Source: Candidatus Omnitrophota bacterium
GTDB taxonomy: Bacteria > Omnitrophota > Gorgyraeia > Zapsychrales > Fredricksoniimonadaceae
Assembly (NCBI GenBank): GCA_044225175.1
Contig: JBGAJA010000004.1
Span: 81,631-145,630, forward strand
DNA length: 64,000 bases
Direction: 5' to 3'
Positions 31,301 to 47,356 of the stretch are shown here, one piece after another. Position numbers and translations under genes: made by a program. The stretch's first letter is position 1; each line of letters opens with the position of its first letter. The notes beneath the pieces were generated by a model that saw only the letters and a program-made list of their open reading frames with translations, was not told the origin of the DNA and searched no databases.

Positions 31301-34300
31301 TTTTTATTCCAAAGCGTAAGAATGCCTATTGCAGTTCCATCTCCAACATCCTTATAACTCGTGGTAAGAAAATACGTACCATCTGGAGATAAAGCAACGG
31401 CTGTTATGTCTTCACGATCACTTGTGTTAATGGGCTCTTCCTGTGTGGACCATGTCCCATCAGCTTCTTTACTGGAAATTCTGACCTTCCCAGCCTGCGT
31501 TACAGAGACATAAAACTTTCCATCAGAGGCCACAGCAACAGCCGCTGTAAAACCATCTCCCTTAGAGTTTAATTCGTGAAATTTGATCTGTTCCGGGACT
31601 AATAATTTCTTAGCTATTTCCCAAATCCTAGCGGCTCCATCATCACTTGATAACACAATATAACGGCCGTCGGGACTATAGGCGGCGGTAGACACCCCAT
31701 ATGGAAATCCTGTTAAAGGCTTTCCTATTTGCTGTCTTGTTTGCACATCCCAAAACCTAACAGATCCATCATCACCTGCTGTCACAATATAACGACTATC
31801 TGGACTAAATACTACGCTCACCACTTCCTTATCAAGTCCTTTTAAAGGCTCACCTATTGGCTGTCTTGTTTGGGCATCCCAAATTCTGACCGGGCCATCA
31901 AAACTTACTGTCACAATATAACGTCCATCAGGACTATAGACTGCTGAGCTGAACACTGAATCATCATGTTCTATTAAAGGCTCACCTATTTGCTGTCTTG
32001 TTTGCGCATCCCAAATCCTAACTGTGCCATCACGACTTGCTGTCATAATATAACGGCCGTCGGGACTATAGGTCGCGGTATAGACCCCATTTGAATGTCC
32101 TTTTAAAGGCTTTCCTATTTGCTGACCTGTTTGTGCATCCCAAATCCGAACAATGCTATCATGACTTGCTGTCACGATATAACGACCGTTTGGACTATAG
32201 GCCGCCGAAGTCAGATAATCCTCATGTCCTGTTAAAGTCTCTATTGGCTGTCTTGTTTGCGCATCCCAAATTGTAGCGGTCCTATCATCACTCGCAGTCA
32301 AAATATAACGACCATCTGGACTAAATACTGCGCTCATCACTAACCCAGAATATACTCTGAAAGGCTCACCTATTTGCTGGCCTGTTTGTGCATCCCAAAT
32401 CCGAACTGTCTTATGATCAGATACTGTCACGATATAACGACCATCGCGACTATAGGCTGCTGATCTCACAAAATCAGTATGTCCTGTTAAAGTCTTGATC
32501 ATCTTTCTTTGATCATCAGGCAAGAGCTCTAATAATCCTCTTTTGCCTTGATTGGCCATGATTTCGTTGATCTGAGCAATGACTTTCTCAAGCTCTTTCT
32601 TCCACTTACTTTCAGGCACAAATGCTGCTTTAACTTTAAGCTCATCTTGCCTTGCCTTTAATCTTTCAATCTCACTAGTAAAGAAATCAATCCCTGCCTG
32701 GAATGGATTATTCTCAACCCCTCCTAATTCTTCTAAATGAGACCTTTGTTCCTCAAGAAGTTTAATCACTCGTCCTATGTCTTCGACAGTATCCTTATGC
32801 CCCTGAACAATTCCTTCAATCGTACTCTTCACCTCTGCCAGTGGGTCGGCACTCATGGCTTGATCTGAGCTACCGGTCTTTGCAGTGTTTGGCTTAAATA
32901 TCTTTGTTGTTATGATCTTTCCTTTTAAATCGTCTGTTAAAAGTCGTCCATCAAGGAGACTTTCCTCTTTAGCAATCAATAGTTCTAATTCTTTTTTTCG
33001 AGCTTCTAATGTGCTTAATTCCTGTTGAAGTACATCTTGTCCATCCTTAGGAACATCGGTATCGGGTGTCTGTGGTTCCAATGGTTTAAAAATCTTCCGA
33101 ATTACGGTTGTAGGATGATCTTTAGTTGTAATGAACACACTCGTTCCATCAGGACTAAATCCAATCACAGCATTAACGGCGTCCCCAAGGGAAAAACTTT
33201 TAATTTCTTCTCCTGTTTCAATGTTCCAAATCTTGGCTGTCCCATCCTTGCTCGCCGTAGCGAGCATTCTTCCATCAGGACTAAAATTAACTGAGTCCAC
33301 AAAATAAGAGTGGCCGTTCCACACCCTTATTGTTTTTCTCTTTATAATGTCCCAAACTATGAGCGTACAGTCAGACCCCGTTGCTATTTGGTTTCCATCC
33401 GGACTAAACGCCATGGAATAGATATTGTTGGGCTGTTCTAATGTTACTTCCCTTCTTCCAGTGTCCACATCCCATATCCTTACCGCTTCTCCCGTAGACA
33501 TTTTAATGGTCGCAGCCACCTGTGTGCCATCTGGACTAAAAGCGACTTTTGAACTAAGAGATGTTTTATATCCCAATAATCTCTTCAGTTCTACCCCTGT
33601 ATTCACATCCCATATTCTGATTTTATCTAAAGTTGCTATAACAATCTTTGTACCATCAGAACTCAAGCTCATTGCTTTAAAATTTGTTATGTTCTCTAAT
33701 GTCCTGATTTTTGTTCCTTTATCAACATCCCATATAATCACTTGGGAATTATTCATCGTAGCTATCCTTGTTTCATCTAAACTAAAAACAGTTCCCCAAC
33801 TTATATAATCTCTTAGCGTGTGAAGTTCTTTTAGATTTGGAACATCCCATATTTTAATTATTCCACCTTTGCGTACTGTGACTGCTCTACTCCATTTTGG
33901 CCCTAAAACCATTGAGTCCGTAATGTATTTTTCATCTGGTAATAGCTCTATGGGTTTAATCTGGTCTTCTGGCAAAATTTCCATTTGTTCTTGGCTTGTT
34001 TGCTTTTCTTTAGATGAAGATTCTTGTCTTTCAATTGGTTTAAATATGTTCCAAATCTCAGATCCGAAAGCATCCACTATAAATATTTTACCTTCCGACA
34101 GTATTTGGGCTGATTTCAGTCCAACCACCTCAGCGGTAACCTCTACCTCCCATTTACGTCTGGATATTTTCTTCCATATCTTGACGGTACGATCCTCACT
34201 CGCTGTGAATATTCGTCCATCTTCCAACATATGAGCTGCAACAACGGTACCGTTATGCCCTAGACTATAGCGATCTTTTTCTTCTAAAGTAGCTTCCACT

Positions 34301-36093
34301 TCCCAGCTTTTGTCTTTGTTCTGACGCCATATTTTAGTTGTCCTGTCATAGCTGGTAGACAATATTCTTCCATCTGGCAGCATCTGAGCTGAATGGACAA
34401 TGTCTTCATGTCCTTTTAATGTAGATTCAACTGACCACTGGTTGAGAGAATCTTCTTTCCAAATCTTGAGTGTCGCATCTTTACATGTTGTTAATATTCT
34501 TCCATCTTTCAGCATTTGCGCAGAGGTGACCCAGTTTGGATGCTCTAAATTAGCAGCCACATCCCATTGATCCGCTGAAGATTCTTTCCATATTTTTGCT
34601 GAGCTATCATCACTTGCTGTTAACAGTCTTCCATCCGGTAACATTTGGATGGAATTAATACCGTACTCATGTCCCTTAGGATTAGTATTCTTTGATTCCA
34701 AAGTAGAAGTAATCTGCCATTTGTTCTTCGATTTCTGCATCCATATTTTGATCTTTCCATCATGACTTCCCATCACAATTCGTCCATCGGGTAACATTTG
34801 GGCCAAACTAATTGAGGTTTCTTCCTTCTTTGGCCATGATAATGTTACGAGAACTTCTAATTGATCCTTTGATGTCCTACGCCATATCTTGACTGTGTTA
34901 TCAATACTTGCCGTTAATATTCGTCCATCTTCTAATATTTGATTTGAAAAAATAAGGTCTAAATGCCCTTTAGGATTTTCATCTTTATCAAAAGAGAACT
35001 TCATCTCTTCATGGGTCCACTGATCTATGGGCAGTATTTCTCTGGGGGCATTAGAATTCTCAATTTTTTGACTAGATTTAATTCCACGTCTCAGTTGCTT
35101 AATTCGAGCGATCACTTGCCCAAGTTCTTCTTTATGCTTGCTCTTAGGAGTAACCGCTGCTTTAAGCTCATCTTGCCTTACCCTTAATCTTTCAATCTCA
35201 CTAGTAAACAAATCAATCCCTGCCTGGAATGGATTATTCTCACCCCCCCCTAATTCTTCTAAATGAGACCTTTGTTCCTCAAGAAGCTTAATCACTCGTC
35301 CTATGTCTTCTACTGTATCCTTATGGCCCTGAACAATTCCCTCAATTGTACTCTTTACATCTGCCAGCGGGTCGTTGGCTGTATTCATGGCTGCATCTTT
35401 AAACTGGCTCTTGATGGCAAATAAATGTGACTTTTCAAAGGATTGCACTGCCCGATCTTGAACATCTTTCGGAACACTTGACCAGTCTTTGTACACCATA
35501 GCCTGGTCTAATGCTGCCTGCGGATTGAATCCTCCAGAGAAGTATTTACGGGCCACCATCTGGCGTTTACCCTGAGCGTCAGTCGAAGGGTCTTCCTTGA
35601 TATAGTTAAACACCCCCTGCTTGTAGGACTTCAAATAATCCTGGAATATCTTCTCTTCTTCCTTAGGATCTTTCTTCTGTAACCCTTGGGTCTTGCCTTT
35701 GTTCACATAGGCTTTAGATAGAACACTCTTTTTTAGCTCTTTCTTGTACCAAGCTGCCAAGACCATGGAATTGACAATCTGGCGTAAGGGGGCAAAGTCT
35801 TTGGATTGGTTGACTGCTTTCTCTAACTCAGGAATCACGATCTCACGGACAATTTGACTACATAAAAAGGTGTCAGACACCTTTTTATCCATCTGCCCGC
35901 TCAAAAGGTGTCTGACACCTTTTTGTGGGCTAAAATAGTCTTCTTCCATCATTACCTTCAATTTCACATCCAACACCCATACTGTGTTGTCTTTCATCAA
36001 AAGTGATGCCTGATCCGGCAATATCCATACCTTGTTAAACGTATTAATCGGCACATTGGTATTCCCATACTTCTCTTGTACCTTCCCATACAC
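28309..36093 (-). CDS. Giant WD40 / beta-propeller repeat protein paralog P3 (2594-aa ORF); the N-terminal domain is separated by frameshifts
   Basis: At least three runs of WD40-type repeats (xDGRILTAS..IKIW; GH..V.S..YSPDGRYIVT...RIWD) and a second repeat type (SPDGSYFVV). Internal duplication of a ~90-aa helical module. Shared C-terminal tail. The ORF begins inside the conserved N-domain. Confidence 0.7.
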   Translation of the reverse strand: MYGKVQEKYGNTNVPINTFNKVWILPDQASLLMKDNTVWVLDVKLKVMMEEDYFSPQKGVRHLLSGQMDKKVSDTFLCSQIVREIVIPELEKAVNQSKDFAPLRQIVNSMVLAAWYKKELKKSVLSKAYVNKGKTQGLQKKDPKEEEKIFQDYLKSYKQGVFNYIKEDPSTDAQGKRQMVARKYFSGGFNPQAALDQAMVYKDWSSVPKDVQDRAVQSFEKSHLFAIKSQFKDAAMNTANDPLADVKSTIEGIVQGHKDTVEDIGRVIKLLEEQRSHLEELGGGENNPFQAGIDLFTSEIERLRVRQDELKAAVTPKSKHKEELGQVIARIKQLRRGIKSSQKIENSNAPREILPIDQWTHEEMKFSFDKDENPKGHLDLIFSNQILEDGRILTASIDNTVKIWRRTSKDQLEVLVTLSWPKKEETSISLAQMLPDGRIVMGSHDGKIKIWMQKSKNKWQITSTLESKNTNPKGHEYGINSIQMLPDGRLLTASDDSSAKIWKESSADQWDVAANLEHPNWVTSAQMLKDGRILTTCKDATLKIWKEDSLNQWSVESTLKGHEDIVHSAQMLPDGRILSTSYDRTTKIWRQNKDKSWEVEATLEEKDRYSLGHNGTVVAAHMLEDGRIFTASEDRTVKIWKKISRRKWEVEVTAEVVGLKSAQILSEGKIFIVDAFGSEIWNIFKPIERQESSSKEKQTSQEQMEILPEDQIKPIELLPDEKYITDSMVLGPKWSRAVTVRKGGIIKIWDVPNLKELHTLRDYISWGTVFSLDETRIATMNNSQVIIWDVDKGTKIRTLENITNFKAMSLSSDGTKIVIATLDKIRIWDVNTGVELKRLLGYKTSLSSKVAFSPDGTQVAATIKMSTGEAVRIWDVDTGRREVTLEQPNNIYSMAFSPDGNQIATGSDCTLIVWDIIKRKTIRVWNGHSYFVDSVNFSPDGRMLATASKDGTAKIWNIETGEEIKSFSLGDAVNAVIGFSPDGTSVFITTKDHPTTVIRKIFKPLEPQTPDTDVPKDGQDVLQQELSTLEARKKELELLIAKEESLLDGRLLTDDLKGKIITTKIFKPNTAKTGSSDQAMSADPLAEVKSTIEGIVQGHKDTVEDIGRVIKLLEEQRSHLEELGGVENNPFQAGIDFFTSEIERLKARQDELKVKAAFVPESKWKKELEKVIAQINEIMANQGKRGLLELLPDDQRKMIKTLTGHTDFVRSAAYSRDGRYIVTVSDHKTVRIWDAQTGQQIGEPFRVYSGLVMSAVFSPDGRYILTASDDRTATIWDAQTRQPIETLTGHEDYLTSAAYSPNGRYIVTASHDSIVRIWDAQTGQQIGKPLKGHSNGVYTATYSPDGRYIMTASRDGTVRIWDAQTRQQIGEPLIEHDDSVFSSAVYSPDGRYIVTVSFDGPVRIWDAQTRQPIGEPLKGLDKEVVSVVFSPDSRYIVTAGDDGSVRFWDVQTRQQIGKPLTGFPYGVSTAAYSPDGRYIVLSSDDGAARIWEIAKKLLVPEQIKFHELNSKGDGFTAAVAVASDGKFYVSVTQAGKVRISSKEADGTWSTQEEPINTSDREDITAVALSPDGTYFLTTSYKDVGDGTAIGILTLWNKNSQNKWVPGRRLLNDSPWELTDVAIAPDGSYFVVTTESGKVQIWRKSQKNNEWKQETSVGSYSYKITDVAIAPDSSFFVVVHNNSAVQVYNAKGEPQWKQQISAALNNSLSVAIAPDGKSFVVTDKMSGLIHVWENKRSNDEWVSSGQIVKDRFMDLQDVAISPDGNYCVIVGSQGEVFISTKNAAGQWGEGRFLGTVADPGVEDVAAAVAISPDGTYFVTVDGKGRERIWDVGGPRVGQSSLVVLEKRKKWLERIIAHEDELARISQEREDALKSMEAKNQILRLLPLHEISPQEKSQVDSRIKAIARDGSFMVNQDVSDPNGSITIYNADGQRGWAWGNRRSFDPRGEVGLLQKIVISPQGDYFLTLHTRPESGNNGVPPTSDEFIQIWKKNERNQWEPSVIASKEALIGHEDCTLDLVISADGQSFLTLERHSINVWKNKDGEWGKNQSYYYSGYKALDVFPDGSFVAMGNREVSIWDSKGTQQNVRLTPGGRNDVAVSPDGSYFVIVGSQGKIWIWTKNDQGVWEERTEIGSKHSANNFISVSISADGTHLEVVDERGHVTSWHVAGLVADHKPSYRPIHALPPTDNASKLAKAIKFFHGINGIHYSFSYKRDGRVRIVTKGYSPGQKMSTFEEDGTRVPNDPLVQAIKSKFGDLTIFKVLPFFSSRGEESFMAVGQMRQVYVFGKDGREVDHPMAKAIRELPTPFDIYTVLEYQIEGQRRFLFAGERGFVAVYTEGGRRIYEVPLALAISNKHKSNHIYDVIIRENNGEQVFMSIGKGSVFSYKADGSELNNDSLTNEIQKINSVYPVYSVLNFAESDPPFYLSLHDDKGSTRAFAFKKGQKPLGDDLIKNLTDSYSGQMIKHILAYHQGKDSRYLILGDDVGVLGQDLVDLPQQFKIDQLQLRKNRLEKLIKALEAQLEKHPTDSAQSSRDLGGIDLNPDLLKTDIKTEGQMPQVGDAQLPEGLSNLTGLVPFIIKITPMPLPDFVQNHKS
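35864..35924. repeat. In-frame pair of AAAAAGGTGTC(A/T)GACACCTTTTT palindromes in P3
   Basis: Copies at 35864-35886 and 35903-35924. Encodes ...KGVRHLLSGQMDKKVSDTFL... Confidence 0.7.
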
Positions 36094-36300
36094 CCTCTTC
36101 CAGAATTCTTTCCTCTATCTTTTCTTCCGGATACAGCAAGGATGCCATGATCTGTTTTAAGATATAGTCCTGATCTAACAGCTTCATCCCCATCACTGTT
36201 TCCCAAAATCCTCTGAGATCATTCGGTCTTTTTCATAGGGACTTAGGTTCACCCATAGGTGGTCATTGGGTATGGCTAAGGTTGAGAGGAAGTATTTGAT
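36093..36300 (-). pseudogene. Frameshifted junction between the P3 N-domain ORF and the main ORF
   Basis: Aligned with the P4 segment 46840-47180, this stretch shows +1 (cc-t-c vs ccc), -1 (ttt vs tttt), -1 (ggg vs gggg, inside the CCGTAGGGG terminus) and -3 differences. All lie in or next to homopolymers. Confidence 0.5.
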
Positions 36301-36590
36301 TAGTTTGGTCGATTCTTGTTTGATGTCCGTAGGGTATGATTTATCATGCCCTTTAATTGGGTTTGATGAATCAAACCCCTACGGTTAGGGTTTTCATCCG
36401 CATCCATCACAAAATCAAACTCAAAAGGCCGATTCGCATGCACCTTAAGGCCCTTCAACATAGGCACATTGCTGGCCATCGCAACCTCGTAGGTTCGTAA
36501 GGGCAGGTTCCCCTGGGCCTGGGCTGGGATTGGGCCTAGACCGGTTATCAAAAAGCTCACCAATGTTAAAATTGAGAATGGTTTTTTCAT
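36300..36590 (-). CDS. N-terminal domain fragment of P3 (96-aa ORF with signal peptide)
   Basis: Identical at the nucleotide level to the 5' end of P2 (27197-28312). Its start overlaps the P4 stop (ATGA). Confidence 0.55.
   Translation of the reverse strand: MKKPFSILTLVSFLITGLGPIPAQAQGNLPLRTYEVAMASNVPMLKGLKVHANRPFEFDFVMDADENPNRRGLIHQTQLKGMINHTLRTSNKNRPN
36327..36384. repeat. In-frame palindromic element copy in P3 (left terminus CCGTAGGG, one G short)
   Basis: Same element as at 28045-28103 and 47086-47144. Confidence 0.6.
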
Positions 36591-39500
36591 GATTTATGGT
36601 TTTGCACGAAATCAGGAAGCGGCATGGGGGTGATATCTTTAATAATTGGAACCAAGCCTATGATTTCTTTGAATTCTAAAGGAATATTTGAATTTCCCAG
36701 ATCAGGTGTTTGACCCTGATTTTTAACATCTACTTTTAATACATCTGGATTAAGATCAATACCCCCTAAATCTGATTCTTTCAACATAGCTCGATCTGAA
36801 GGAGCGCTGGACTTGAACAGTTGGTATATTGCAGCCAATCCTACCGTTGTTCCAATGAATGACTTTCCATCTGGATGAAATGCTATGAAAACAAAATTAT
36901 AATCTGTCCCTGCATGAAATGTCATGATCTGGTTACCTGTGATCACGTCATATACCTTCATCCGACCATCCTCAGTGCTCGTAAGAATCTTGCTTCCATC
37001 GGTACTAAAGATGAGGGTTATATTAAATCGAGCACTCTCATCACTCTGAACGTTAATATTCTTGAGTACTTTTCCCGTACTAACATTCCAAACTTTGACT
37101 ATATGATCATCACTTGCAATGGCTATGCGTCTTCCATCTGGGCTAAAGGCGACCGCTAATACTTCTCTTTTGTTTCCTACATATGTCATTATTTTCACAC
37201 CTGTTGTGACATCCAACAGATCTATATTGCCATCATCGCTTGGAACAGCTACTTTGCTCGCATCGGGGCTAAAAGCAAAAGCTTCTAACGGAGCCCTCTC
37301 GACTGCAGATATTGATGTGCTAATTTTTTGTCTTGTTTTAGAATCCCATACGATAACGTTATCCCAACTTGCGGCAAGAGCCAGTCTTCCATCTGGACTA
37401 AAGGCAACACGCATTACTGGTTTTGGACTGTTTAATTTCTTAATTACCTTGCCCGTTTTTACACTCCAGATCCTGGCAGTATTATCCTGGCTTCCACTAA
37501 TGATCCTTTGTCCATCTGGGCTAAAAGCAACAGAAAATACCTGATAATTTTTCTCATGCCCTTCGAACACCCTCAATAATTTTCCTGTTCTTACACTCCA
37601 TATCCTCACTTTTCCATCCTCATGGGCAGTAGCTACTTGTTTTCCATTTGGACTAAACGCAGCAGACCGCACAAAACCTCTATAGTTTCCCAATTTCTTA
37701 GGGGCACCGATCTGGTCTTTAGGCAGAATTTCAAGCTGTTCTTTGGCATCTACCTTAACAGGTTTAAATTTATCATCTATCTTACGTCCAGAAACAACAG
37801 GCACTGATGCTGTTGCAAGGAGTTCTTTCCTGGTTTTTAATTTTCCAATCTCCTCATTAAGCAATGCAATCGCTTCACTAAACACATGCACATCACCCCC
37901 TGCAAGGGTTTCCAAATGACCTTTTTGTACCTCAAGAAGATCAATGATTCCCTGAACATCCTTAATTGTGTCTTGAGGCCTCTTAAGAATACCTTCAATG
38001 ATATCTTTAACATCCCTCGCATTATCTCTTAGTGCATTCATCGCAGAGTCTTTTAAATAGAAAGTTCTTACACCATACTCCTGAAGTCCATATAACATTT
38101 GTTCAAATGACTGTAGGCGGGTCATTTGATTGCCCGTTGTTTTATTAATCACCATCTCATCTAATCTGAGTTTTAAAATCCAGTCCGCCCCCTCTTCTAG
38201 AAACTTTGAAGGCCAACCTTTTTTCGCAATGATTGCTGTTCTTATGATGGCTCGCAAGTTGTCAATTCTTGCACGATTTTCTTGTGTGTGAGCTGGCGGC
38301 AAGGTTATATCGCAGCGTTTATCTAAAATGACACCTAATACTTGATAGGCATCTCTGGCCATATTGAATCGTTTTATTTTTTCTCCAATAGTCACAAGTG
38401 TTGGAAGAGTTAAGTTACTTCCCGCTGGCGCGTTATTTTGAATAGTTACATTTTGTTGAACCGTCATTTCATCAAATAATATTTCTAATCTTTGCTGCAA
38501 AGTTTCAATTTGACGATCGATGTTCCCCATGGTGTTTGTTTGCAAGAATCTAAGCACCCTGTCAATGTCTTCAAATCCTGTTTGTGGCTCACGAATGACC
38601 GGAAGATTCTGAACTAATACTCCCTCTCCTTTGAGAAAGTCCTCCAAAGCATTTTTAGTGGGGTCTTTTGAAAAGAGGCCTTGATCAATAAACACTTGCA
38701 CAATGTTGGAACGCCAGCGGATCAAATTTGCAGCATCTCCTTCTAATGTTAAATTCTCCAAAAGAAGGTCCAGAAGAATTTTCTGAGATATTATTCCCTT
38801 ACTTTGCCGATAATTGAACTGACGGACAATAGCTTTAACAAAAGATTTTAAATTACGAATACTAATTTCCTTATTACGCGGAAAGAATGTTGGATCTTTG
38901 ATTTGACGTCTAGAAATTTCCTGAGCAATGCCAATAATTCCCGAATATTCAATTTCTCCATCAGGATATTTCTTAGGCTTGCCACCAGCATCAAGCTTAG
39001 GCTCACCAATCAAGTGTGGATTAACAGCAAATTGCAGGGAATCCACTATAGATTTCCCGACAGCTGCTTCGTTGAGGTAATAAACCATTTCTTGAGGCGG
39101 CATATCCTCAAAATCAATGACCATATGACGTTCAATAAAGTCATCCGGAAATGATTTGATCCTCTCTCCGCTGCCAGGACGATTAATCGTATGAATAATA
39201 CCAGAACCAGGCTGCCCAAAAGTGACCTGAGACTCTTTGGTTGGATCATGAATCATGTTTCTTTCAGCATATTCATTGAGTAATGAAAGTACGGAAGGGC
39301 GTCCTTGATTGCTTTCATCCATATTTAAGATTTGCCCATGACCATGGCCATCGTCCATAATCGAAGGTAATATCCCAGGAAAAAAACGTGTACGGAAAGA
39401 CTTAAGCGCTCTTGAAAAAGTCAAATGATACCTACGGGTTTCTTCATTGATTTCCGCCTTTAGAATTCCTGGGGCATTCAACAATTTTTGGATGGCGAAT

Positions 39501-42500
39501 GTCATAGTACTTTTTCCTGTTCCAGGTTTTCCTACAAATATCGCGTGTTTACCCAAACCATGCCCTTGAAGATACACATACAATTTAAGAGAGTTCTTAG
39601 CGCTTTCAATCCACTCCTTGATTTCAGAGGGTAATCTACCTGATCGGATTTCTGCCTTTGGATGAAGAGGAACTCTGATGGGATCCCAGAATTCTGCTGA
39701 TGCTCCACTTGGAGTAATGATCAAATAATCACCATCCACTTTAAAAGAGGATTCTTTGAACTCCAAAGGCGGTTTATTTGGACTATCTATACGCCATGCC
39801 TTAAAAGCATGTAATGCACCTTGATAAGTATTATTACGGTCTTCTTCCGCTTTAAAATTATAATAATATTGAATCACACTTAAAGGCCGATACTCCCAGT
39901 CTTTCTCGAAATTGATAAAATGAGTGATGATATTTTTAATAACACGAGGAGATGGCGGCCGTTTCAGGTTCTGAGCAATTCCAGAGGCTGGGCCATTCTT
40001 AAAAAGATCCATAATTTGAGGGTCCTGCGCCATTTTCTGGACTAAATAGTTAGAGTCCAATAAATTCCAAGATTCCCGATTAGCAAAAATAACAGCCTGT
40101 TGTTGAGCACTATAACCTGCAAATGATAGTCTAAGTTCGGCTGCAATACGGACTAATTCAGTAATATCATTTTGCAATTTTTGCCTAAAATTTTCCCAAT
40201 CATCTTTATGAATTCCCTTCTGACGGGCCAAATTTAAAGCATATTCTAGCTGCCAGGCCACTTCATCTTCAGGCCAGTCCCAATAAAATTCCACATCTTT
40301 AAATCTGTCTTGCATGGGCGCATTTGCTTCAAAGCTAGTACCAGTAATACCCGAGCGGATACGATTGACGCTTGCTAATAGCCTGGCGCGCGGGTGATTA
40401 GGCAAAGTCTCAAAACGCGTAATTCCGTCTCGAACAATGGGCCATTTATGAGTTTTGCCTGTGATATGAGATTTGAGGGAATTTAATACGCTTTGACGAA
40501 TTTTATGGGCTTCACGAATGACAAACCACCCTCCTTTATGCATGACCTCATTGAGACCTGAGGGTATGACCCCTGAAGTGCCTGCTTCTTCTGCTCCAAC
40601 GGATTGAGGTCCACTTTCAAGATCTTCCACATCGAGATCTCCATCTCCCGACATCACATATACCTCTTCATTCAATAAATGAGCTGTAGCCATTAAAATT
40701 TCATCTTTTCCAAGACCTGTCTCACCGATTAAACGAACTGCAATTCCATCCCATGAATCACTAGCTGTTTCATTATTAAAACGCAATCGACTTTCGACCT
40801 CCCACTGAGAAGATTTCTTAAAGATAATGACTTCTCCGTCATTATGATTGTACGCAAATACTTTTTCACTGTTGATTTTATAGATATTCCATTGACCTTC
40901 TTGCAATTCAGAAATAGGCAATTCCTTAGCTATATCATCTTTAGGAATATCTATTGAAACGGAATCAAAAACTTTAATAGGTGTGTATCCTCCATGATTA
41001 TCATCTTTTTGCAAAAGCTCAATCTGACCATCTTCAATTTGTCTTAGTCCATAACGGTGGTCTGCTGAATAAGACATATCGATATGGTTGGAGTTATACA
41101 GGGCATCTAAAATTTTAATCATTTTATCCTCAGTAGAGGCCGTCATTGGAATCGTAGTCGTGGGGACATTTGAACCTCCAAGCCCTCTTTGCCAATAAAG
41201 AGCTTCTTCATTAGGACGTTTAAAGACTAAAAATTCATACCCATTTCTAGTTTGAGTAAAGAAATGTTTATAATCGCCCAAAGGTTTCATTTCTCCAAAC
41301 TGAACCTGTGGATCAGAGGTCATGGCCGCATCTACACTGTCCAGCCAGCTGACTCCAGGAGCAGGTGCTCTGATGGAATTAGCAAAAGAGTCCATGACTG
41401 CATTAGGGAGATCTCCAAACGAGGCCGGAGCAATCACACGATGAGGATATTCTTTATTCTGAAGCTGCGAGGCACGCACTTGATTCATATTTCCTAAAGG
41501 AATGATATACACATGAGCACCCTCATCCTCTGCTTGCTGAAGAGTAGTATGGACTTTCCCTTTTTGATCCTCATCCACATCTTCATCCGTCAAAGCAAAA
41601 AGGATGCGAATACTTTTCTCTCCACTGGAAACGGAATCCTGAGAAGATAATAAACGTTCAATATACTTAAAAAGATTGGATGCATAATGAGTACCTCCAC
41701 CTGCATTTAATTTCTTCCACACATCATAAAGTACACGTTCTTTACGAAAATTCTGCTTGCGAGATGTCTCATGGGAAATCATGGTTTCCCCTGGTGCATC
41801 CACAAAAAGACCAACTTCAAATTCAATAGGCGCATATCCTCTGGACTGACGAACTTCATTATGGTTTAAGATAGCGCTCATCATGACAAAATAAATAATC
41901 CTGGCCATTTGAATGGGAAAAATACCCCGTTCATTGTCAACTCCCATACTTCCGCTTCGATCCATCACAAATGACACTTTAACCGGAAGAGGTTCATTAG
42001 GTTTCCATTTGCCAAAAGCAGGTCCCCCTGAAATGGCTGCCACCACATTTGCTAATATCGCACCTTGCTCCAAATCTCTTTCAAAAGTAATATCAACACT
42101 AGGGAGGGTTAAGACTTCCAGAGCTTTAGTAAAACGTTGAATCAGCTTGCCAACTGTGATTGTTTTACCCTTATTTGTAATTTCAATTTCGAGCCATTTG
42201 TTATATTCTTTCCATTCATCCATGGTCAAACCTGTTCGGTTCTTGATCATCTCTTCTTCCGCACGAGCTGCTGCAAGAGGGTCGAAAGGTTTGACAGTAA
42301 TAGGTCTAACAGGAGGTGTGGTTGGTCTTTGACTATTCAAAAAATCATCCACATCTGGAATATTCACCTTATCTGGCATGGATAATTCTTGGCTGTCCTT
42401 TGTCGCAGGCTTGTGTTGTTGGGGTTGATCTTCACTAGCCGGTTGAGAATTTGATGATGAACTTTGGGATGGTTGATTTTGCGATTTCTTTGATGATTGT

Positions 42501-45500
42501 TCCAAAGATTGCTTCAAAGAATCAATCTTACTTTGCAGATCTGATAATTTATTGGAAGCGTCTTTTGTTTTAGATGATGTTTGATCAACTTGCTCTCGAA
42601 TTTCTCCCACTGTGCGTTCAATTTGGCGTACTTGTCCTTGGACTTGAGGGCCATCAGGCTTGGGTTCGCTTAATTTATCTGATAGTTGATCTGTGCCTTT
42701 TTTGAGGGCATTTGCTTTTTCTTGAAGATCATGGATTTGATTTAAAAGGTCTTGGATCTTGCCATCAAATTCTTTTGACGAATCAGAGGCTTCTTTGCCC
42801 TCTTCCGGAGAAGGAAGATTTTGACGCATGCCTTCGGTAGCATCTTTTTGATTAGACGAAGCACTAGAAGCTTCGCGGGCCTGATTCAAAAGATTCTGGG
42901 CTTTCGATTGGATATCTTTGGCTTTGCCTTTAAGATCATCAGCTGTTTTGCGTTGATCATCAAGCGGCTTACTCTCAATTCCAGAAGCATTGACATCCCC
43001 TACCTTGCCCTTCATCCCCTCTAATCCCTGGGTCATCTCTTCAATTTTCTTATTGAGATCACTCAGTTGACCGGCTAAATCTTTCATGGTTTTCTCAACA
43101 TCTTTAATATCATGAGAGCCGCCTTGCTTCTGCCCTTGACCTGGAATGTAGCGACCTTGAGATCCTCGGGAGCCTTGCGGCTTACCTGGCCCTTGGGATT
43201 GTCCTTGTTGACCTGAAGCTCCTGGCTGCCCCTGCTGCCCTGCCTGACCTTGTTTCCCCGATTGGCCCTGTTGACCCTGCTGTCCTTGTTGGCCTTGCTG
43301 GCCCTGTTGACCTTGCTCTCCTTCGCCCTCTTGATCTTGCGGTGTTGGCTGCCCCTGAGAACCGCTTTGGCCGAATTCTTCTTGGGCCTCATCCATTTGC
43401 TCTTGCACAGCTTTTCGAATAGCTTCTTTGGTCTTTTCATCCAAAGAATTCCAGAAATCTTCCAACTGTTGCTTTTGTTCTTCTGTCATTTGATCAAATT
43501 CACGACGCAATGCTTCCTTCTTTTCTTCTTTCATTTTACGTTGATAAGCGCGCCATCGTTCTTCAGTTTTCTTGGCTTTCTCAAAGAGTTCCAAATAAAC
43601 CGGCCAAATCTTTTCTCCAATGGCTTTAACAATTTGCGCATCTTGAATGTATTTAGGATGAAAAAGAAGTTTAAGCCAGCCATAATCTTTGGCATCATCC
43701 AAACTTCCCATTGTTCTAACAACAGCTGTTTCCAAGGCAGGATTGTTGACCCGGGGGTCTTTCATGCTTTGTTCTTGAGGATCATAATGAAACCGTCGAT
43801 ACATCAAAGAATCCAAATATTGCAGATGAAGGGGCAAAGAACTTAACAAGGCCTTGGCCACCAATTGATGGGCTTTTGTATCCCCTAAATCATATCGATC
43901 TCTTAACACCCTTCCCACCCAGAGGGAAGCCCCCTGCAAACTTTGATCTGCTTGACCTGATAAAATACTTTTAGAAGTAACGTCAATTCCAAGGCGTACA
44001 GATTTTGGAAACAATAGTGTGTCCCACAACGTCTGAGTGATGGAGTTTCCTTTAGACGAATCAGGAAGATTCTTCATAAGACCACGTAAACCAAATTTGA
44101 CTTGAGAGATAGCAATAAATGCTAATCCAAGTCCTCTCTCACGGGCCGCTTCGATCTGTCCTTCTAAATCATTTCTGGATGTACCATCATAGAGACGCGG
44201 ATAAATATCTGTGGGAACATAATGAAGCTCTCCCACATAATCACTTTTAGATTGATAACGCCACAGCCCTCTTGGTGTACCTTTAAGTTCAACTTGCTGA
44301 CCTGCCGATGTGCCGGCAAATTTGAGAATGTCATCTGTAATTTTAGCTATTCCATGACCTACTTTAGGATCTTCTGACAAGGCATAACGTTCATAAAGAA
44401 CTTGGAAAAAATCTTTGAGAAGCCGAAGCGGTTTGATGTCTGGGTCTTTGGCTTTCATCTCTGAAAAGACCCCGGCAATTAAAATACCCACCGCTCTTTG
44501 GGCTGCATAACTATTTAAGAGAAGGTCTGCTGACTGCCCTTGTTCTTCATAAACTGCCCGGGCTTCACTTAAAAGATATTCCACAGAGAAGTATCCAGCT
44601 TGACGATCAGAAGTCCCTGGATTGATCATAAATCCAGTTTCTCCCTGCTCGGCAATTTGGCGGCCTCGTTTAAATAAATCCACAGCTGCGGGCTCCTGTG
44701 TCATAGCTGCAAATTCGATTAATTTCTTTTCAAATAAACCTTCATCACCTTTGACAAAACGCTCTATTTCCAGAACACTAACTGCATGGGTAATGTCTTC
44801 CCATTTAAAGGGAATATGAATTTCACCTTGGTTAGCAAAATAATGAAAAAGTTCATGTTTTAAAGCCAATCGAATGAACCATTCAGTGGCTTTATCTTTA
44901 ACATAAACTTTCTTGGATAAAGGATCAAAAAGCCCTCCAGACATGCCAATGACACTGTTCATATTTACAAGAAGATCAGCCGCTGACTCACGCCATTGAT
45001 CAAATGGACCTATTTTAAAAAGAGGCTCTAAGAGGTCTCCAAAATAATAGGATTTCACATCTTCCCTTAATCGTTTTTTCCAAACTTCTTGAGCAGTGCC
45101 ATCAAAAAGCTCTTCTACTGTTTCATCAATGATTTGATCTACAATCCCTCGCGTTTCTTTAGATAGACCCTTGTTGCCAACTACAAGCATTTCTTCATAG
45201 AGCGCCATAAATTTACTTTCAAATTCATGAGGATTTCTAATCTCACCTAGAAAAAATAATCTATCAATCTTTCCTTGGGCATAGACTTGATGAGCCGCCT
45301 TCAATGCAGATTCAAATCCTTGTTCCGTGGTTTTTTGAGACAAAGGCCCAACTACATTAAGCATACTCTGATAAGCCACATGAAAAGCCGGTTCATCGCT
45401 ATTATCCAAAGCTATAACCATGTCTTGTTTCAATGTGAAATAATCTTTCATGACCTCCTGAAGGGAGGCTCGTTCGTAGTCTTTGGAGGGTGGACTAGAC

Positions 45501-47356
45501 ATCGCTTCATCAGTTAATCCATACTTTTTTCTTAAATTTTTTAAAAGAAAAGCTTGTCTTTCTACAATACTCCAAGGATCCTCTTCTGAGGCCTCAATAG
45601 ATTCCCAATATTCTTTATCCACATACCAAGCAACTTTCATCCCGGGATTGTTGTGCTGAATCCAAGTTAAATGTTCTTCAATCTCCTTCTTAAAACCAAA
45701 ATGAAACATACTGATGTTTTTATTTAAAATAATAATTATATTTTTATCATCAATAAGGGTCCTAAACAGATAACCATACTCCCTTAATCGAGCCTCAAGT
45801 AAGCTGATAAAATGAAATTCTATTTTCACATTAGACGTTCTATCTTGAGTGGGTGCGGTTGTGATCGCAACAGATGGTGTTTGTGTTGCTGAATTTGATG
45901 AAGTTAATGGAATAGAAGGAAGACTTTTCTTCTTCTCTTCTAAAACTTTGATGACCTCACCAAGCCTCTCAATGACCCATTGAAAATTATTGGAACTTTG
46001 TTCCTCCAACGCTTGAAAACTATCCTTAGATTGTTTTAACTCTTGAATTGCTTCTTCCACCTTCTCTTGAGAATCTAATGGCTTATCTAAAATGTTCTTG
46101 ATGGTTTGTTCTACATCTTGTCTGTCTTTCAAAGTGGGACTATGGGTCATGGCAGGATCAATGGATTTGAATTCACTTCGTACTGCAAATAAATGTGACT
46201 TCTCAAAGGATTGCATGGCTCGATCTTGAATCTCTTTAGGAACACTTGACCAGTCTTTGTACACCATAGCCTGGTCTAATGCTGCCTGTGGATTGAATCC
46301 TCCTGAGAAATATTTTCGTGCTACCATCTGACCTGTGATCTCGTCTTTTTCCTCCTTAATATAATTGAACACGCCCTTCTTATAGGTCTTAAGATAGTTT
46401 TGGAATATCTTCTCTTCTTCCTTAGGATCTTTCTTCTGTAACCCTTGGGTCTTGCCTTTGTTCACATAGGCTTTAGATAGAACACTCTTTTTTAGCTCTT
46501 TCTTGTACCAAGCTGCCAAGACCATGGAATTGACAATCTGGCGTAAGGGGGCAAAGTCTTTGGATTGGTTGACTGCTTTCTCTAACTCAGGAATCACGAT
46601 CTCACGGACAATTTGACTACATAAAAAGGTGTCAGACACCTTTTTATCCATCTGCCCGCTCAAAAAGGTGTCTGACACCTTTTTGTGGGCTAAATAGTCT
46701 TCTTCCATCATTACCTTCAATTTCACATCCAACACCCATACTGTGTTGTCTTTCATCAAAAGTGATGCCTGATCCGGCAATATCCATACCTTGTTAAACG
46801 TATTAATCGGCACATTGGTATTCCCATACTTCTCTTGTACCTTCCCATACACCCTCTTCCAGAATTCTTTCCCTATCTTTTCTTCCGGATACAGCAAGGA
46901 TGCCATGATCTGTTTTAAGATATAGTCCTGATCTAACAGCTTCATCCCCATCACTGTTTTCCCAAAATCCTCTGAGATCATTCGGTCTTTTTCATAGGGA
47001 GATAGGTTCACCCATAGGTGGTCATTGGGTATGGCTAAGGTTGAGAGGAAGTATTTGATTAGTTTGGTCGATTCTTGTTTGATGTCCGTAGGGGTATGAT
47101 TTATCATGCCCTTTAATTGGGTTTGATGAATCAAACCCCTACGGTTAGGGTTTTCATCTCCCGCATCCATCACAAAATCAAACTCAAAAGGCCGATTCGC
47201 ATGCACCTTAAGGCCCTTCAACATAGGCACATTGCCGGCCATCGCAACCTCGTAGGTTCGTAAGGGCAGGTTCCCCTGGGCATAAGTGGGCATGGGGCCT
47301 ATGATAGAGCTAACGATGAAGCAAACTAATATAGTTAAACTTAATGGGGTTTTCAT
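36587..47356 (-). CDS. Giant modular secreted protein paralog P4 (3589 aa): N-domain, helical region with a Gly-X-Y tract, VWA, two AAA+ (MoxR/AAA_5-like) modules, WD40 propeller, shared C-terminal tail
   Basis: Signal peptide. HELFH at ~nt 44850. 13 consecutive G-X-Y triplets (GEQGQQ...GQS) at ~43205-43330. VWA MIDAS motif (VSFVMDRSGSMG) at ~41950. Degenerate P-loop (LIGETGLGKDE) at ~40715 and Walker A (FVGKPGTGKST) at ~39525. WD40 repeats at 36850-37800. C-terminal ...ITPMPLPDFVQNHKS. Confidence 0.8.
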   Translation of the reverse strand: MKTPLSLTILVCFIVSSIIGPMPTYAQGNLPLRTYEVAMAGNVPMLKGLKVHANRPFEFDFVMDAGDENPNRRGLIHQTQLKGMINHTPTDIKQESTKLIKYFLSTLAIPNDHLWVNLSPYEKDRMISEDFGKTVMGMKLLDQDYILKQIMASLLYPEEKIGKEFWKRVYGKVQEKYGNTNVPINTFNKVWILPDQASLLMKDNTVWVLDVKLKVMMEEDYLAHKKVSDTFLSGQMDKKVSDTFLCSQIVREIVIPELEKAVNQSKDFAPLRQIVNSMVLAAWYKKELKKSVLSKAYVNKGKTQGLQKKDPKEEEKIFQNYLKTYKKGVFNYIKEEKDEITGQMVARKYFSGGFNPQAALDQAMVYKDWSSVPKEIQDRAMQSFEKSHLFAVRSEFKSIDPAMTHSPTLKDRQDVEQTIKNILDKPLDSQEKVEEAIQELKQSKDSFQALEEQSSNNFQWVIERLGEVIKVLEEKKKSLPSIPLTSSNSATQTPSVAITTAPTQDRTSNVKIEFHFISLLEARLREYGYLFRTLIDDKNIIIILNKNISMFHFGFKKEIEEHLTWIQHNNPGMKVAWYVDKEYWESIEASEEDPWSIVERQAFLLKNLRKKYGLTDEAMSSPPSKDYERASLQEVMKDYFTLKQDMVIALDNSDEPAFHVAYQSMLNVVGPLSQKTTEQGFESALKAAHQVYAQGKIDRLFFLGEIRNPHEFESKFMALYEEMLVVGNKGLSKETRGIVDQIIDETVEELFDGTAQEVWKKRLREDVKSYYFGDLLEPLFKIGPFDQWRESAADLLVNMNSVIGMSGGLFDPLSKKVYVKDKATEWFIRLALKHELFHYFANQGEIHIPFKWEDITHAVSVLEIERFVKGDEGLFEKKLIEFAAMTQEPAAVDLFKRGRQIAEQGETGFMINPGTSDRQAGYFSVEYLLSEARAVYEEQGQSADLLLNSYAAQRAVGILIAGVFSEMKAKDPDIKPLRLLKDFFQVLYERYALSEDPKVGHGIAKITDDILKFAGTSAGQQVELKGTPRGLWRYQSKSDYVGELHYVPTDIYPRLYDGTSRNDLEGQIEAARERGLGLAFIAISQVKFGLRGLMKNLPDSSKGNSITQTLWDTLLFPKSVRLGIDVTSKSILSGQADQSLQGASLWVGRVLRDRYDLGDTKAHQLVAKALLSSLPLHLQYLDSLMYRRFHYDPQEQSMKDPRVNNPALETAVVRTMGSLDDAKDYGWLKLLFHPKYIQDAQIVKAIGEKIWPVYLELFEKAKKTEERWRAYQRKMKEEKKEALRREFDQMTEEQKQQLEDFWNSLDEKTKEAIRKAVQEQMDEAQEEFGQSGSQGQPTPQDQEGEGEQGQQGQQGQQGQQGQQGQSGKQGQAGQQGQPGASGQQGQSQGPGKPQGSRGSQGRYIPGQGQKQGGSHDIKDVEKTMKDLAGQLSDLNKKIEEMTQGLEGMKGKVGDVNASGIESKPLDDQRKTADDLKGKAKDIQSKAQNLLNQAREASSASSNQKDATEGMRQNLPSPEEGKEASDSSKEFDGKIQDLLNQIHDLQEKANALKKGTDQLSDKLSEPKPDGPQVQGQVRQIERTVGEIREQVDQTSSKTKDASNKLSDLQSKIDSLKQSLEQSSKKSQNQPSQSSSSNSQPASEDQPQQHKPATKDSQELSMPDKVNIPDVDDFLNSQRPTTPPVRPITVKPFDPLAAARAEEEMIKNRTGLTMDEWKEYNKWLEIEITNKGKTITVGKLIQRFTKALEVLTLPSVDITFERDLEQGAILANVVAAISGGPAFGKWKPNEPLPVKVSFVMDRSGSMGVDNERGIFPIQMARIIYFVMMSAILNHNEVRQSRGYAPIEFEVGLFVDAPGETMISHETSRKQNFRKERVLYDVWKKLNAGGGTHYASNLFKYIERLLSSQDSVSSGEKSIRILFALTDEDVDEDQKGKVHTTLQQAEDEGAHVYIIPLGNMNQVRASQLQNKEYPHRVIAPASFGDLPNAVMDSFANSIRAPAPGVSWLDSVDAAMTSDPQVQFGEMKPLGDYKHFFTQTRNGYEFLVFKRPNEEALYWQRGLGGSNVPTTTIPMTASTEDKMIKILDALYNSNHIDMSYSADHRYGLRQIEDGQIELLQKDDNHGGYTPIKVFDSVSIDIPKDDIAKELPISELQEGQWNIYKINSEKVFAYNHNDGEVIIFKKSSQWEVESRLRFNNETASDSWDGIAVRLIGETGLGKDEILMATAHLLNEEVYVMSGDGDLDVEDLESGPQSVGAEEAGTSGVIPSGLNEVMHKGGWFVIREAHKIRQSVLNSLKSHITGKTHKWPIVRDGITRFETLPNHPRARLLASVNRIRSGITGTSFEANAPMQDRFKDVEFYWDWPEDEVAWQLEYALNLARQKGIHKDDWENFRQKLQNDITELVRIAAELRLSFAGYSAQQQAVIFANRESWNLLDSNYLVQKMAQDPQIMDLFKNGPASGIAQNLKRPPSPRVIKNIITHFINFEKDWEYRPLSVIQYYYNFKAEEDRNNTYQGALHAFKAWRIDSPNKPPLEFKESSFKVDGDYLIITPSGASAEFWDPIRVPLHPKAEIRSGRLPSEIKEWIESAKNSLKLYVYLQGHGLGKHAIFVGKPGTGKSTMTFAIQKLLNAPGILKAEINEETRRYHLTFSRALKSFRTRFFPGILPSIMDDGHGHGQILNMDESNQGRPSVLSLLNEYAERNMIHDPTKESQVTFGQPGSGIIHTINRPGSGERIKSFPDDFIERHMVIDFEDMPPQEMVYYLNEAAVGKSIVDSLQFAVNPHLIGEPKLDAGGKPKKYPDGEIEYSGIIGIAQEISRRQIKDPTFFPRNKEISIRNLKSFVKAIVRQFNYRQSKGIISQKILLDLLLENLTLEGDAANLIRWRSNIVQVFIDQGLFSKDPTKNALEDFLKGEGVLVQNLPVIREPQTGFEDIDRVLRFLQTNTMGNIDRQIETLQQRLEILFDEMTVQQNVTIQNNAPAGSNLTLPTLVTIGEKIKRFNMARDAYQVLGVILDKRCDITLPPAHTQENRARIDNLRAIIRTAIIAKKGWPSKFLEEGADWILKLRLDEMVINKTTGNQMTRLQSFEQMLYGLQEYGVRTFYLKDSAMNALRDNARDVKDIIEGILKRPQDTIKDVQGIIDLLEVQKGHLETLAGGDVHVFSEAIALLNEEIGKLKTRKELLATASVPVVSGRKIDDKFKPVKVDAKEQLEILPKDQIGAPKKLGNYRGFVRSAAFSPNGKQVATAHEDGKVRIWSVRTGKLLRVFEGHEKNYQVFSVAFSPDGQRIISGSQDNTARIWSVKTGKVIKKLNSPKPVMRVAFSPDGRLALAASWDNVIVWDSKTRQKISTSISAVERAPLEAFAFSPDASKVAVPSDDGNIDLLDVTTGVKIMTYVGNKREVLAVAFSPDGRRIAIASDDHIVKVWNVSTGKVLKNINVQSDESARFNITLIFSTDGSKILTSTEDGRMKVYDVITGNQIMTFHAGTDYNFVFIAFHPDGKSFIGTTVGLAAIYQLFKSSAPSDRAMLKESDLGGIDLNPDVLKVDVKNQGQTPDLGNSNIPLEFKEIIGLVPIIKDITPMPLPDFVQNHKS
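46623..46684. repeat. In-frame pair of AAAAAGGTGTC(A/T)GACACCTTTTT palindromes in P4
   Basis: Copies at 46623-46645 and 46662-46684. Encodes AHKKVSDTFLSGQMDKKVSDTFL. Confidence 0.7.
47086..47144. repeat. In-frame 59-bp CCGTAGGGG...CCCCTACGG palindromic element in the P4 N-domain
   Basis: Identical to the P2 copy apart from one base (catgattt vs tatgattt). Confidence 0.6.

Follow-up and report, generated by a model that had tools for sequence, protein, structure and literature searches.

The subject of this work is P4, a very long gene in a 64,000-nucleotide stretch of DNA from a Candidatus Omnitrophota bacterium (assembly GCA_044225175.1, contig JBGAJA010000004.1, positions 81,631 to 145,630). 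The whole stretch is called here the window, and all coordinates refer to it. P4 occupies positions 36587..47356 of the reverse strand, on which all of its features described below also lie, and it translates from an ATG start into 3589 amino acids (aa) with zero internal stops, in agreement with the 3589-aa product given in the first-pass annotation of this DNA; an open frame of 3,589 codons at 40% GC excludes a chance origin. A regular-expression scan located the motifs HELFH, DRSGS, GETGLGKD and GKPGTGKS where that annotation had placed them, and its order of domains was the one that we found. A Pfam scan of the whole protein was swamped by WD40 families, and the calls for the other domains come from a tiled scan, which produced zero matches for aa 1-1250 and for the last 90 residues. 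With NCBIfam, only weak similarities to SMC, Scl, EccA and GvpN were obtained.

The core of P4 (aa 1750-2949) was used as query in an exhaustive phmmer search against 1.84 billion representative sequences. Only 88 proteins passed E<1e-3, and of these 48 also passed E<1e-30, the stronger ones being mostly 2-7.5 thousand residues long (kaa). The same modules follow each other in the same order in around 35 proteins, namely a module with an HExxH motif, a coiled coil, a von Willebrand factor A (VWA) domain, a link domain of ~190 aa, two AAA modules (AAA1 and AAA2) and a helical domain; this cassette of ~2,600 aa, present in about 35-48 protein clusters that nearly all have a predicted signal peptide, is a recurrent conserved block and not a one-off fusion. 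Ahead of the cassette, some members carry the same N-terminal module as P4 (N-module) and others a different N-terminal domain that also bears a signal peptide, and the C-terminal add-ons vary, P4 and P0139 having WD40 repeats, P0126 HEAT repeats, L002 repeats of another kind and P0131 a metallophosphatase. For every part of P4 the nearest homologues are labelled Candidatus Omnitrophica or Omnitrophota, together with two metagenome-assembled genomes (MAGs) labelled Planctomycetia, which identifies the window as part of an Omnitrophota-type chromosome. Neither this recurrent cassette nor the N-module and C-terminal tail (C-tail), which are Omnitrophota-specific and common to thousands of proteins, had been noticed in the first-pass annotation.

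Three independent MAG contigs (L002, L003 and L005) each encode the whole cassette in a single frame. The search for related loci used strict patterns and returned only four loci, so that taxonomic spread is under-sampled. These single frames bear on the idea that the long frame of P4 is an assembly chimera or a decaying pseudogene. The assembly does contain indels, since five 1-nt ones fall in homopolymers within the N-module of the next gene downstream, and the exact P4 sequence is missing from the protein collection. Against this, 10.8 kb remain open with zero stops, the identical module order recurs in a single frame in the three MAGs and in dozens of database proteins, and the functional residues are conserved, which makes such an origin scarcely credible to us. 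A frameshifted or chimeric gene was ruled out by the single-frame cassettes of other MAGs and by the nature of the breaks in a further locus, L001 (GCA_040753435.1, contig JBFMEN010000029.1), which are homopolymer indels.

At L001 the orthologue is annotated as three open reading frames (ORFs) of 1923, 466 and 4690 aa, and the junctions (15560-15800 and 17040-17200) show single-base indels in G4 and T3 homopolymers, which indicates that it is probably one gene of ~7 kaa. In its protein a large insertion of HEAT-like repeats separates the link domain from AAA1, and HEAT repeats replace WD40. In P0129 the cassette is circularly permuted, with the link, AAA1, AAA2 and helical parts first and the HExxH, coil and VWA parts last, suggesting that the two halves are separable yet kept together.

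Modules of the cassette and their known relatives

The first module of the cassette (aa 610-1260; 43577..45529) contains the HExxH motif HELFH (aa 834-838; 44843-44857). The first-pass annotation had noticed the motif, but not that it appears to be the active site of a module of ~650 aa with a gluzincin-fold core. HExxH followed by a Glu placed 15 residues past the second His was present in 32/32 homologues, the residues in P4 being H834, E835, H838 and E853, the latter (44798-44800) as putative third zinc ligand. An alignment of 18 sequences yielded a confident AF2 model of aa 700-1080 (pLDDT 86.9, pTM 0.79), in which HExxH is contained in one helix and the invariant Glu stands at the start of the following helix, in such a way that the three marks of a gluzincin (MA clan) are found together, the HExxH motif, a downstream Glu on the next helix and a zincin fold. 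By sequence the module had no Pfam match, a profile search of PDB sequences gave nothing significant (IrrE, E=2.3), and it could not be assigned to any named MEROPS or Pfam peptidase family. Compared with known gluzincins (thermolysin M4, fungalysin M36, M1, M3 and M32), it shows 7-13% sequence identity, its His-to-Glu spacing is 15 residues versus ~19-20 in M1 and M4, and its gluzincin core, unlike theirs, is embedded in a helical module of 650 aa. On the modelled fold, the HExxH module is a divergent zincin outside the named families.

Downstream of it, a low-complexity linker rich in Gln and Gly includes 14 G-X-Y triplets (aa 1346-1387; 43196..43321), one more than the 13 counted in the first-pass annotation, which had located the run correctly and described it as collagen-like. 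The tract is mostly GQQ with a single Pro, it coincides with an array of a 9-bp repeat detected by TRF at 43225-43317, and its score with the Pfam Collagen model was 18.5 bits versus a cut-off of 27.2. The linker of the homologues is rich in Gln, Gly, Ser and Pro and shows no G-X-Y periodicity, five triplets being the longest run. The tract does not have the properties of a collagen triple helix, and from its sequence it is best described as a low-complexity spacer particular to the P4 copy. These data also bear on the view of P4 as a surface adhesin, with a trimeric G-X-Y stalk presenting VWA and WD40 heads and with the P-loops as relics. Its attractions are the 14 triplets themselves, weak profile matches to the collagen-like adhesins Scl2/SclB and Lcl, and the fact that VWA and WD40 are binding domains. 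Nevertheless, we regard it as very improbable, having in mind that the tract is a Gln-rich 9-bp tandem repeat with one Pro, that it does not approach the length of bacterial collagens or reach the Pfam cut-off, that no homologue has more than five triplets there, and that both AAA2 and the peptidase show strong conservation of their catalytic residues, which would be unexpected in relics. A collagen-like stalk was ruled out by the tandem-repeat origin, the sub-threshold Pfam score and the non-conservation. The linker is followed by a coiled-coil or charged helical stalk (aa ~1400-1700; 42257..43159) with weak profile matches to SMC, laminin and filament proteins, whose position is conserved in the cassette family; in the tiled Pfam scan, noise of the coiled-coil type was detected over aa ~1400-1650.

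The VWA domain (aa ~1790-2008; 41333..41989) has a complete metal ion-dependent adhesion site (MIDAS), formed by D1799-x-S1801-x-S1803, T1889 and D1924, with the DRSGS motif at aa 1799-1803 (41948-41962). P4 itself scored 18.6 bits with PF00092, below the cut-off of 23.8, and the homologue P0129 reached 27.3 bits, above it; the five MIDAS ligands were conserved in 39-40/40 homologues, so that the VWA domain proposed in the first-pass annotation has a real MIDAS and DxSxS is not a chance motif. Between the VWA and the AAA modules lies the conserved link domain (aa 2010-2200; 40757..41329), with the signature GY+HFF..YLVF..W.RG.GG..VP..SYS.DG. In cassette relatives that have no N-module, short inter-module motifs of their own were seen by eye (RSE[VA]R in P0131 and P0143, [GS].RM[AT] in P0128 and P0142, GFG[AT][ED] in P0138), often just before the IEGY+HFF start of this domain.

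Two MoxR/AAA_5-type modules follow, the first degenerate and the second canonical, as had been proposed. AAA1 (aa 2201-2560; 39677..40756) matched PF07728 at aa ~2208-2352 with 32.9 bits (gathering score 22), and AAA2 (aa 2561-2800; 38957..39676) at aa 2605-2729 with 36.3 bits (the same gathering score). In AAA1 the Walker A motif is GETGLGKD (aa 2211-2218; 40703-40726), with no Ser/Thr; in a family profile of 42 sequences its Lys (K2217) was conserved in 41, and the next residue, D2218 in P4, was D in 20, G in 14 and N in 4, almost never S/T. With the Ser/Thr replaced, Mg coordination is uncertain. The Walker B motif of P4 AAA1 reads VIRE, in which Asp is changed to Arg2281 and Glu2282 is kept; across the family the first acid is Asp in 29 and Arg in 8 sequences, the Glu is present in 41/42, and the sensor-1 Asn (N2331) and the Arg (R2351) in 42/42. 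AAA2 contains the canonical Walker A GKPGTGKST (GKPGTGKS at aa 2609-2616; 39509-39532), the Walker B ILNMDE (D2680, E2681), sensor-1 N2725 and R2743, and its profile (n=47) shows GK[ST] in 42, [E/D]E in all, the sensor-1 Asn in 45 and the Arg in all. The idea that the P-loop regions lack Walker B and sensor elements did not hold: the Walker B Glu, the sensor-1 Asn and the Arg are conserved in both modules across 42-47 homologues. Chance DxSxS and relic P-loops were rejected as explanations on the full motif sets conserved across the family. Judged from these residues, AAA2 looks like an active ATPase and AAA1 like a conserved but deviant nucleotide site, further degenerate in the sub-lineage of P4. 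Between the two modules there is a small beta-rich insert (aa ~2510-2596; ~39570-39830; FKVDGDYLIITP...WDPIRVPLHP), highly conserved in the family, with a weak match to a domain of the TORC2 subunit AVO1 (PDB 3ulb, E 0.025).

After AAA2, a helical domain (aa 2801-3200; 37757..38956) conserved in the cassette family precedes a seven-bladed WD40 propeller (aa 3221-3504; 36845..37696), which is a variable add-on. The propeller had been correctly recognised beforehand: PF00400 gave 131.9 bits, with E down to 1e-48, whole-propeller profiles cover aa 3228-3498, and seven blades with the pattern AFSPDG...W can be read in P4.

We compared P4 with described systems in which AAA+ and VWA proteins work together. 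In the survey of Kaur, Burroughs, Iyer and Aravind (2020; PMC7159879), MoxR and vWA are presented as a chaperone/co-chaperone pair that takes part in ternary systems, among them a beta-propeller subsystem found in lineages of the Planctomycetes/Verrucomicrobia type and proposed to act near the membrane; metallopeptidase effectors are occasionally fused to the vWA component, and deviant P-loops occur in the MoxR one. Of the systems described so far these come closest to P4, which shares with them a MoxR-clade AAA+, a vWA with MIDAS and a beta-propeller. In contrast, they consist of three separate genes, whereas P4 is one polypeptide with two tandem AAA modules and, unlike them, a signal peptide; their propeller has ~4 blades placed directly C-terminal to vWA, whereas that of P4 is a 7-bladed WD40 after the ATPases that is not conserved in the family; and their P-loop variant is GXXXTAKS versus GxxGxGK[D/G/N] in the P4 family. 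No third variable component of the ternary kind was identified in the P4 neighbourhood, where the WD40 giant encoded downstream has a P4-type envelope and an upstream TPR protein (18523-20640) was not followed further. As a whole, P4 is not a MoxR-vWA-beta-propeller ternary system.

BchI/BchD and CobS/CobT are motor subunits of Mg- and Co-chelatases, and BchD is an AAA+-VWA fusion. Chelatases and P4 are alike in having one active AAA+, one degenerate AAA+ and a MIDAS VWA, and the sole, weak similarity of AAA2 to a solved structure was to CobS (E 0.12). The domain order is nevertheless reversed, with VWA first in P4 and last in BchD, the sequence similarity is marginal, there is no chelatase substrate subunit, and in P4 a peptidase, a coiled coil and an export signal are added; P4 lacks the defining features of a chelatase. 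Midasin/Rea1, which is eukaryotic and nuclear, has six AAA modules, forming one ring per chain, and a C-terminal MIDAS. It resembles P4, within dynein-type AAA_5 arrays, in combining AAA_5 modules and MIDAS in one very long chain with long linkers; however, P4 has two AAA_5 modules with the VWA N-terminal to them, is thus no midasin, and would have to oligomerise to form a ring. In RavA-ViaA, CbbQ-CbbO, NorQ-NorD and CoxD-CoxE, an AAA_5/MoxR ATPase works with a MIDAS VWA partner in chaperoning or maturation; in these classical pairs, ATPase and partner are distinct proteins of the cytoplasm, with only one AAA module, in contrast to the one chain and two AAA modules of P4, and in the phmmer search with the P4 core no classical MoxR/VWA pair appeared at E<1e-3 beyond matches to the Walker A only. 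That MoxR ATPases act with a separate VWA partner, the premise of the first-pass annotation, is then usually true, but fusions are known (BchD/ChlD and midasin). Its view of the architecture as undescribed stood in so far as we found no description of the family; the architecture is less isolated than was thought, because of those fusions and because MoxR-vWA-beta-propeller gene triads have been described (PMC7159879). P4 is one of a small conserved family of which no description was found, itself nested in a class of modular exported proteins that spans the phylum.

Signal peptide, N-module, C-tail and the D-x-A-M motif

The first 26 residues of P4 (47279..47356) have the features of a Sec-type signal peptide, as expected from the export-type N-terminus proposed in the first-pass annotation. 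In the sequence MKTPLSLTILVCFIVSSIIGPMPTYA, followed by QG, there is a single basic residue, the hydrophobic core spans 15 residues (Kyte-Doolittle 2.67), small amino acids occupy -3/-1, and the predicted cleavage between TYA and QG fits the -3/-1 rule for signal peptidase I; an A.AQ consensus is kept in the N-module family. Apart from a buried VWA helix, aa 5-23 is the only strongly hydrophobic stretch of the protein. Among the 24 cassette proteins with a complete N-terminus, ~20 start with a basic n-region that leads into a hydrophobic core and then an AxA-like c-region, and further segments resembling transmembrane (TM) helices are nearly absent. On these sequence features, export looks integral to the cassette family.

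Next to the signal peptide lies the N-module (aa 27-370; 46247..47278), with the invariant motifs WVNLSPYEK and YFSGG. A search with aa 1-1260 of P4 found >3194 proteins, which have aa ~1-370 in common with 40-52% identity, this segment being N-terminal in every matching protein; in 120 listed members, 42 columns are invariant, including W115-P120 and Y349-G353. An AF2 model of aa 27-480 had a pLDDT of 69, and no PDB fold match and no Pfam model were found for the module. The top Foldseek rows were the alpha-pore-forming toxins NheA and ClyA, which were not significant (E 1.9-8.7, probability <= 0.04). These toxins are built of long helices plus a beta-tongue, and the N-module model shows long helices and a beta-hairpin at aa 190-217; the resemblance is a lead toward a role in membrane insertion or translocation, and nothing more. 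The Pfam domains carried as cargo by N-module proteins include protein kinase, HATPase_c, methyltransferases, PGK, PPDK, GGDEF, MutS, helicase, metallophosphatase, NUDIX and HEAT. In P4, a spacer that is partly helical or of low complexity (aa 371-609; 45530..46246) joins the N-module to the peptidase.

The other end of P4 is the C-tail (aa 3515-3589; SDRAM...GGIDLNP...; 36590..36814). Its last 70 residues match the consensus of alignments A1 and A2, D.AM...GGIDLT...IKFH.DPAML.QLQNAPGF.PVII.IQP...FLG, and GG[IVL]D[LFM] occurs within the last 120 aa in 106/124 proteins (the 120 N-module hits and P0001-P0004). P4 carries the hallmarks of this class at both ends (aa 1-370 and aa 3518-3589). Within the window there are four N-modules (46247-47356 in P4, 35479-36590, 28001-28312 and 430-1512) and three C-tails (36590-36814, 28312-28521 and 27209-27415), the C-tails being 55-59% identical. 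The envelope of signal peptide, N-module and C-tail is Omnitrophota-specific, and most of the complete members examined carry both ends. In the literature searched we found no description of the N-module, the GGIDL C-tail, the D.AM motif or the peptidase-VWA-AAA cassette, and the N-module/C-tail/D.AM scheme may be a more novel item than P4 itself.

The motif D-x-A-M (D.AM) occurs in P4 at aa 361, 378, 400, 616, 2009, 3103 and 3521 (46265-46276, 46214-46225, 46148-46159, 45500-45511, 41321-41332, 38039-38050 and 36785-36796), the sites at 361, 378 and 400 being near the start of the spacer. These seven copies compare with 0.37 expected from shuffles (maximum 3), and in the 120 N-module proteins there are 335 versus 14.7 expected, a 23-fold enrichment; N-x-A-M is also enriched in these proteins. 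D.AM may mark sites of processing or punctuate the chain, or it may act as a structural cap. Such an enrichment invites the view of P4 as a polyprotein, cut at D-x-A-M so that N-module and C-tail are set free along with the peptidase and with one VWA and one tandem-AAA protein, in such a way that a classical MoxR with a separate VWA would result. Three of the sites (aa 616, 2009 and 3521) are no more than ~6 residues away from the independently set BLAST-coverage boundaries at 610 (HExxH module), 2010 (between VWA and link) and 3515 (C-tail), the site between VWA and link is kept in L002 (WLDTVDSAMTT) and in P0125 and P0139, and post-translational cleavage of Omnitrophota giant proteins has previously been proposed in the literature. 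On the other side, no protease of D.AM specificity was identified, one copy (DPAML) is part of the conserved C-tail fold, and two N-terminal ones fall in moderate-confidence helices of the AF2 model and not in disordered linkers, so that the motif may be structural; in addition, cassette relatives outside the lineage of P4 have no D.AM, though other short recurring motifs were seen in them by eye. We give this processing, the main alternative to the reading favoured below, a low, still appreciable, probability, and it is partly compatible with P4 being a machine made as a single chain.

Proposed mode of action and localisation

With these elements, the reading that we favour, at slightly less than even confidence, is that P4 is an exported single-chain remodelling machine of the MoxR-VWA type that carries its own protease. 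The mechanism is inferred from the biology of MoxR-VWA systems, namely RavA-ViaA, CbbQ-CbbO, the chelatases and midasin (PMC7159879). By analogy with them, AAA2, with its canonical motifs, would be the motor driving ATP-dependent remodelling, and AAA1 would have a nucleotide-binding or a structural and regulatory role, comparable to that of the inactive AAA+ in BchD or of the degenerate ring in type-II AAA+ proteins. Through oligomerisation the chains would build one ring or a stack of two, the MIDAS could clamp an acidic residue, either in a client or elsewhere in the chain, and ATP-driven remodelling would then control the access to, or the activity of, the peptidase effector. The WD40 propeller may serve as a platform for binding targets or partners, and the N-module and C-tail could be the sorting or anchoring elements of a phylum-specific export route. 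Strict conservation of ATPase motifs in a protein predicted to be exported suggests that it works most likely where ATP is available beyond the cytoplasm of the producer, at or inside a host or prey cell, which fits the predatory or parasitic lifestyle proposed for Omnitrophota.

Several points weigh against an exported machine. The signal peptide call is based on rules and on family-wide conservation only, the N-module is without a recognisable fold, and its sorting role is a guess from position and ubiquity. No source of ATP is known beyond the cytoplasm of the bacterium, and that the protein would be delivered into prey is purely our supposition. Genes for secretion, injection, protease or immunity partners were not found in the P4 neighbourhood, and the PADLOC defence models gave zero matches, leaving P4 without a link to known defence systems. 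Finally, the Walker B Asp of AAA1 is lost in P4 and its closest relatives, and AAA2 of the L001 protein reads LTE and not MDE, so that ATPase activity may be decaying in the sub-lineage of P4.

The question of ATP leads to a different possibility, that P4 is not secreted and represents a cytoplasmic, membrane-tethered, single-chain version of the MoxR-vWA-beta-propeller conflict or quality-control systems. Strictly conserved ATPase motifs imply a need for ATP, the cargo of N-modules is dominated by nucleotide-dependent enzymes of cytoplasmic type (kinases, HATPase_c, methyltransferases, PGK, PPDK, GGDEF, MutS and helicases), the authors of published work doubt some of the extracellular predictions for Omnitrophota giants, and MoxR-vWA ternary systems are thought to be intracellular, near the membrane (PMC7159879). 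However, basic n-regions, h-regions of 12-16 residues and AxA-type c-regions are typical of cleaved Sec signals and not of N-out anchors, the positive-inside rule places the bulk of the chain outside, and there is no second hydrophobic segment to return it, all of which makes this localisation rather improbable.

Export of such proteins has been considered before for the phylum. The long proteins of Omnitrophota are mostly predicted to be exported, AAA_5 is among their commonest domains, and a role in predation has been proposed (10.1101/2023.11.21.568195, 10.64898/2026.06.07.730766); for the giants, proteolytic processing has been proposed too, and the paradox between export and cofactor-dependent domains has previously been noted in the literature. 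P4 shares with the giant proteins called archaeovorins the phylum, a predicted export signal and a long concatenation of domains, and the archaeovorin domains AAA_5, HEAT, HATPase_c, PPDK_N, NUDIX, GGDEF and methyltransferase are also in the cargo repertoire of N-modules. Archaeovorins are 30-147 kaa long, often with many TM helices, whereas P4 has 3.6 kaa and none internal; it is not one of them, as their class comprises proteins of >10-30 kaa with many TM helices and rich in glycosyl hydrolases (GH) or glycosyltransferases (GT), and there are no GH or GT domains in P4. A broader reading, to which we concede only a modest chance, is that P4 exemplifies a phylum-wide, so far undescribed scheme of export and processing, in which the signal peptide plus N-module and the GGIDL C-tail bracket interchangeable cargo, D-x-A-M marks the cuts, and nucleotide-dependent enzymes are delivered outside the producer, probably onto or into prey. 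If so, P4 would be an AAA+ machine, of protease-VWA-double-AAA+ type and with its catalytic residues intact, working outside the cytoplasm of its producer, and the archaeovorins could be concatenated arrays of such cassettes.

The case sharpens a puzzle posed by the long and giant proteins of Omnitrophota, namely the predicted export of domains that depend on ATP, SAM or other cofactors of the cytoplasm. Selection on the ATPase catalytic residues of P4 makes wrong localisation calls or dead domains less likely as its explanation. MoxR-VWA pairs are widespread and poorly understood chaperone-like systems, for which a single-chain form with a zinc protease and an export signal would offer a defined construct with which to find the MIDAS ligand and the ATPase target. 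The N-module, the C-tail and D.AM could likewise serve as handles (antibodies, mass-spectrometric mapping of cleavage, reporter fusions) for the sorting and processing of large proteins in ultra-small, probably predatory bacteria.

Neighbouring genes, paralogues and repeats

The flanks of P4 are housekeeping genes, with a riboflavin operon with nusB upstream and a class-II tRNA synthetase and PPDK downstream; farther away there are gshA/gshB, metH, a radical-SAM enzyme and a glycosyltransferase. Directly downstream of P4 on the same strand, 28309-36590 encodes a multi-WD40 paralogue of ~2.76 kaa, whose ORF is listed as 2594 aa, followed by a minimal N-module/C-tail member of 371 aa (27197-28312, also on the reverse strand). 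The starts of both genes overlap the preceding stop as ATGA, and the same hand-over to a new N-module gene, starting with MKTPL..., was seen at L002. A fourth N-module gene is cut by the left edge of the window.

Over 1130 nt of DNA, the downstream giant has an N-module with 95% identity to that of P4, and this N-module is broken by five 1-nt indels at ~35900-36330, each in a homopolymer run, which are either a long-read error signature or the mark of a young pseudogene; they explain the GTG start at 36093 in the ORF list. The same giant contains at 29755-29883 (aa 2071-2113 of the 2594-aa ORF) a match to the T9SS type-A sorting domain (TIGR04183, 27.3 bits, cut-off 23), which is internal, far from the C-terminus.

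A perfect palindrome of 17 nt, AAGGTGTCWGACACCTT, is present in eight copies in the window (0 expected), at 827-843, 866-882, 1634-1650, 18504-18520, 35867-35883, 35905-35921, 46626-46642 and 46665-46681. Tandem pairs lie in frame within three N-module coding regions, and the pair of P4 encodes KKVSDTFL twice, in a variable loop of low confidence. The single copies are at two intergenic spots, one of them adjoining a tRNA-Arg gene. The palindrome resembles a REP-like element, either domesticated within coding sequence or tolerated there.

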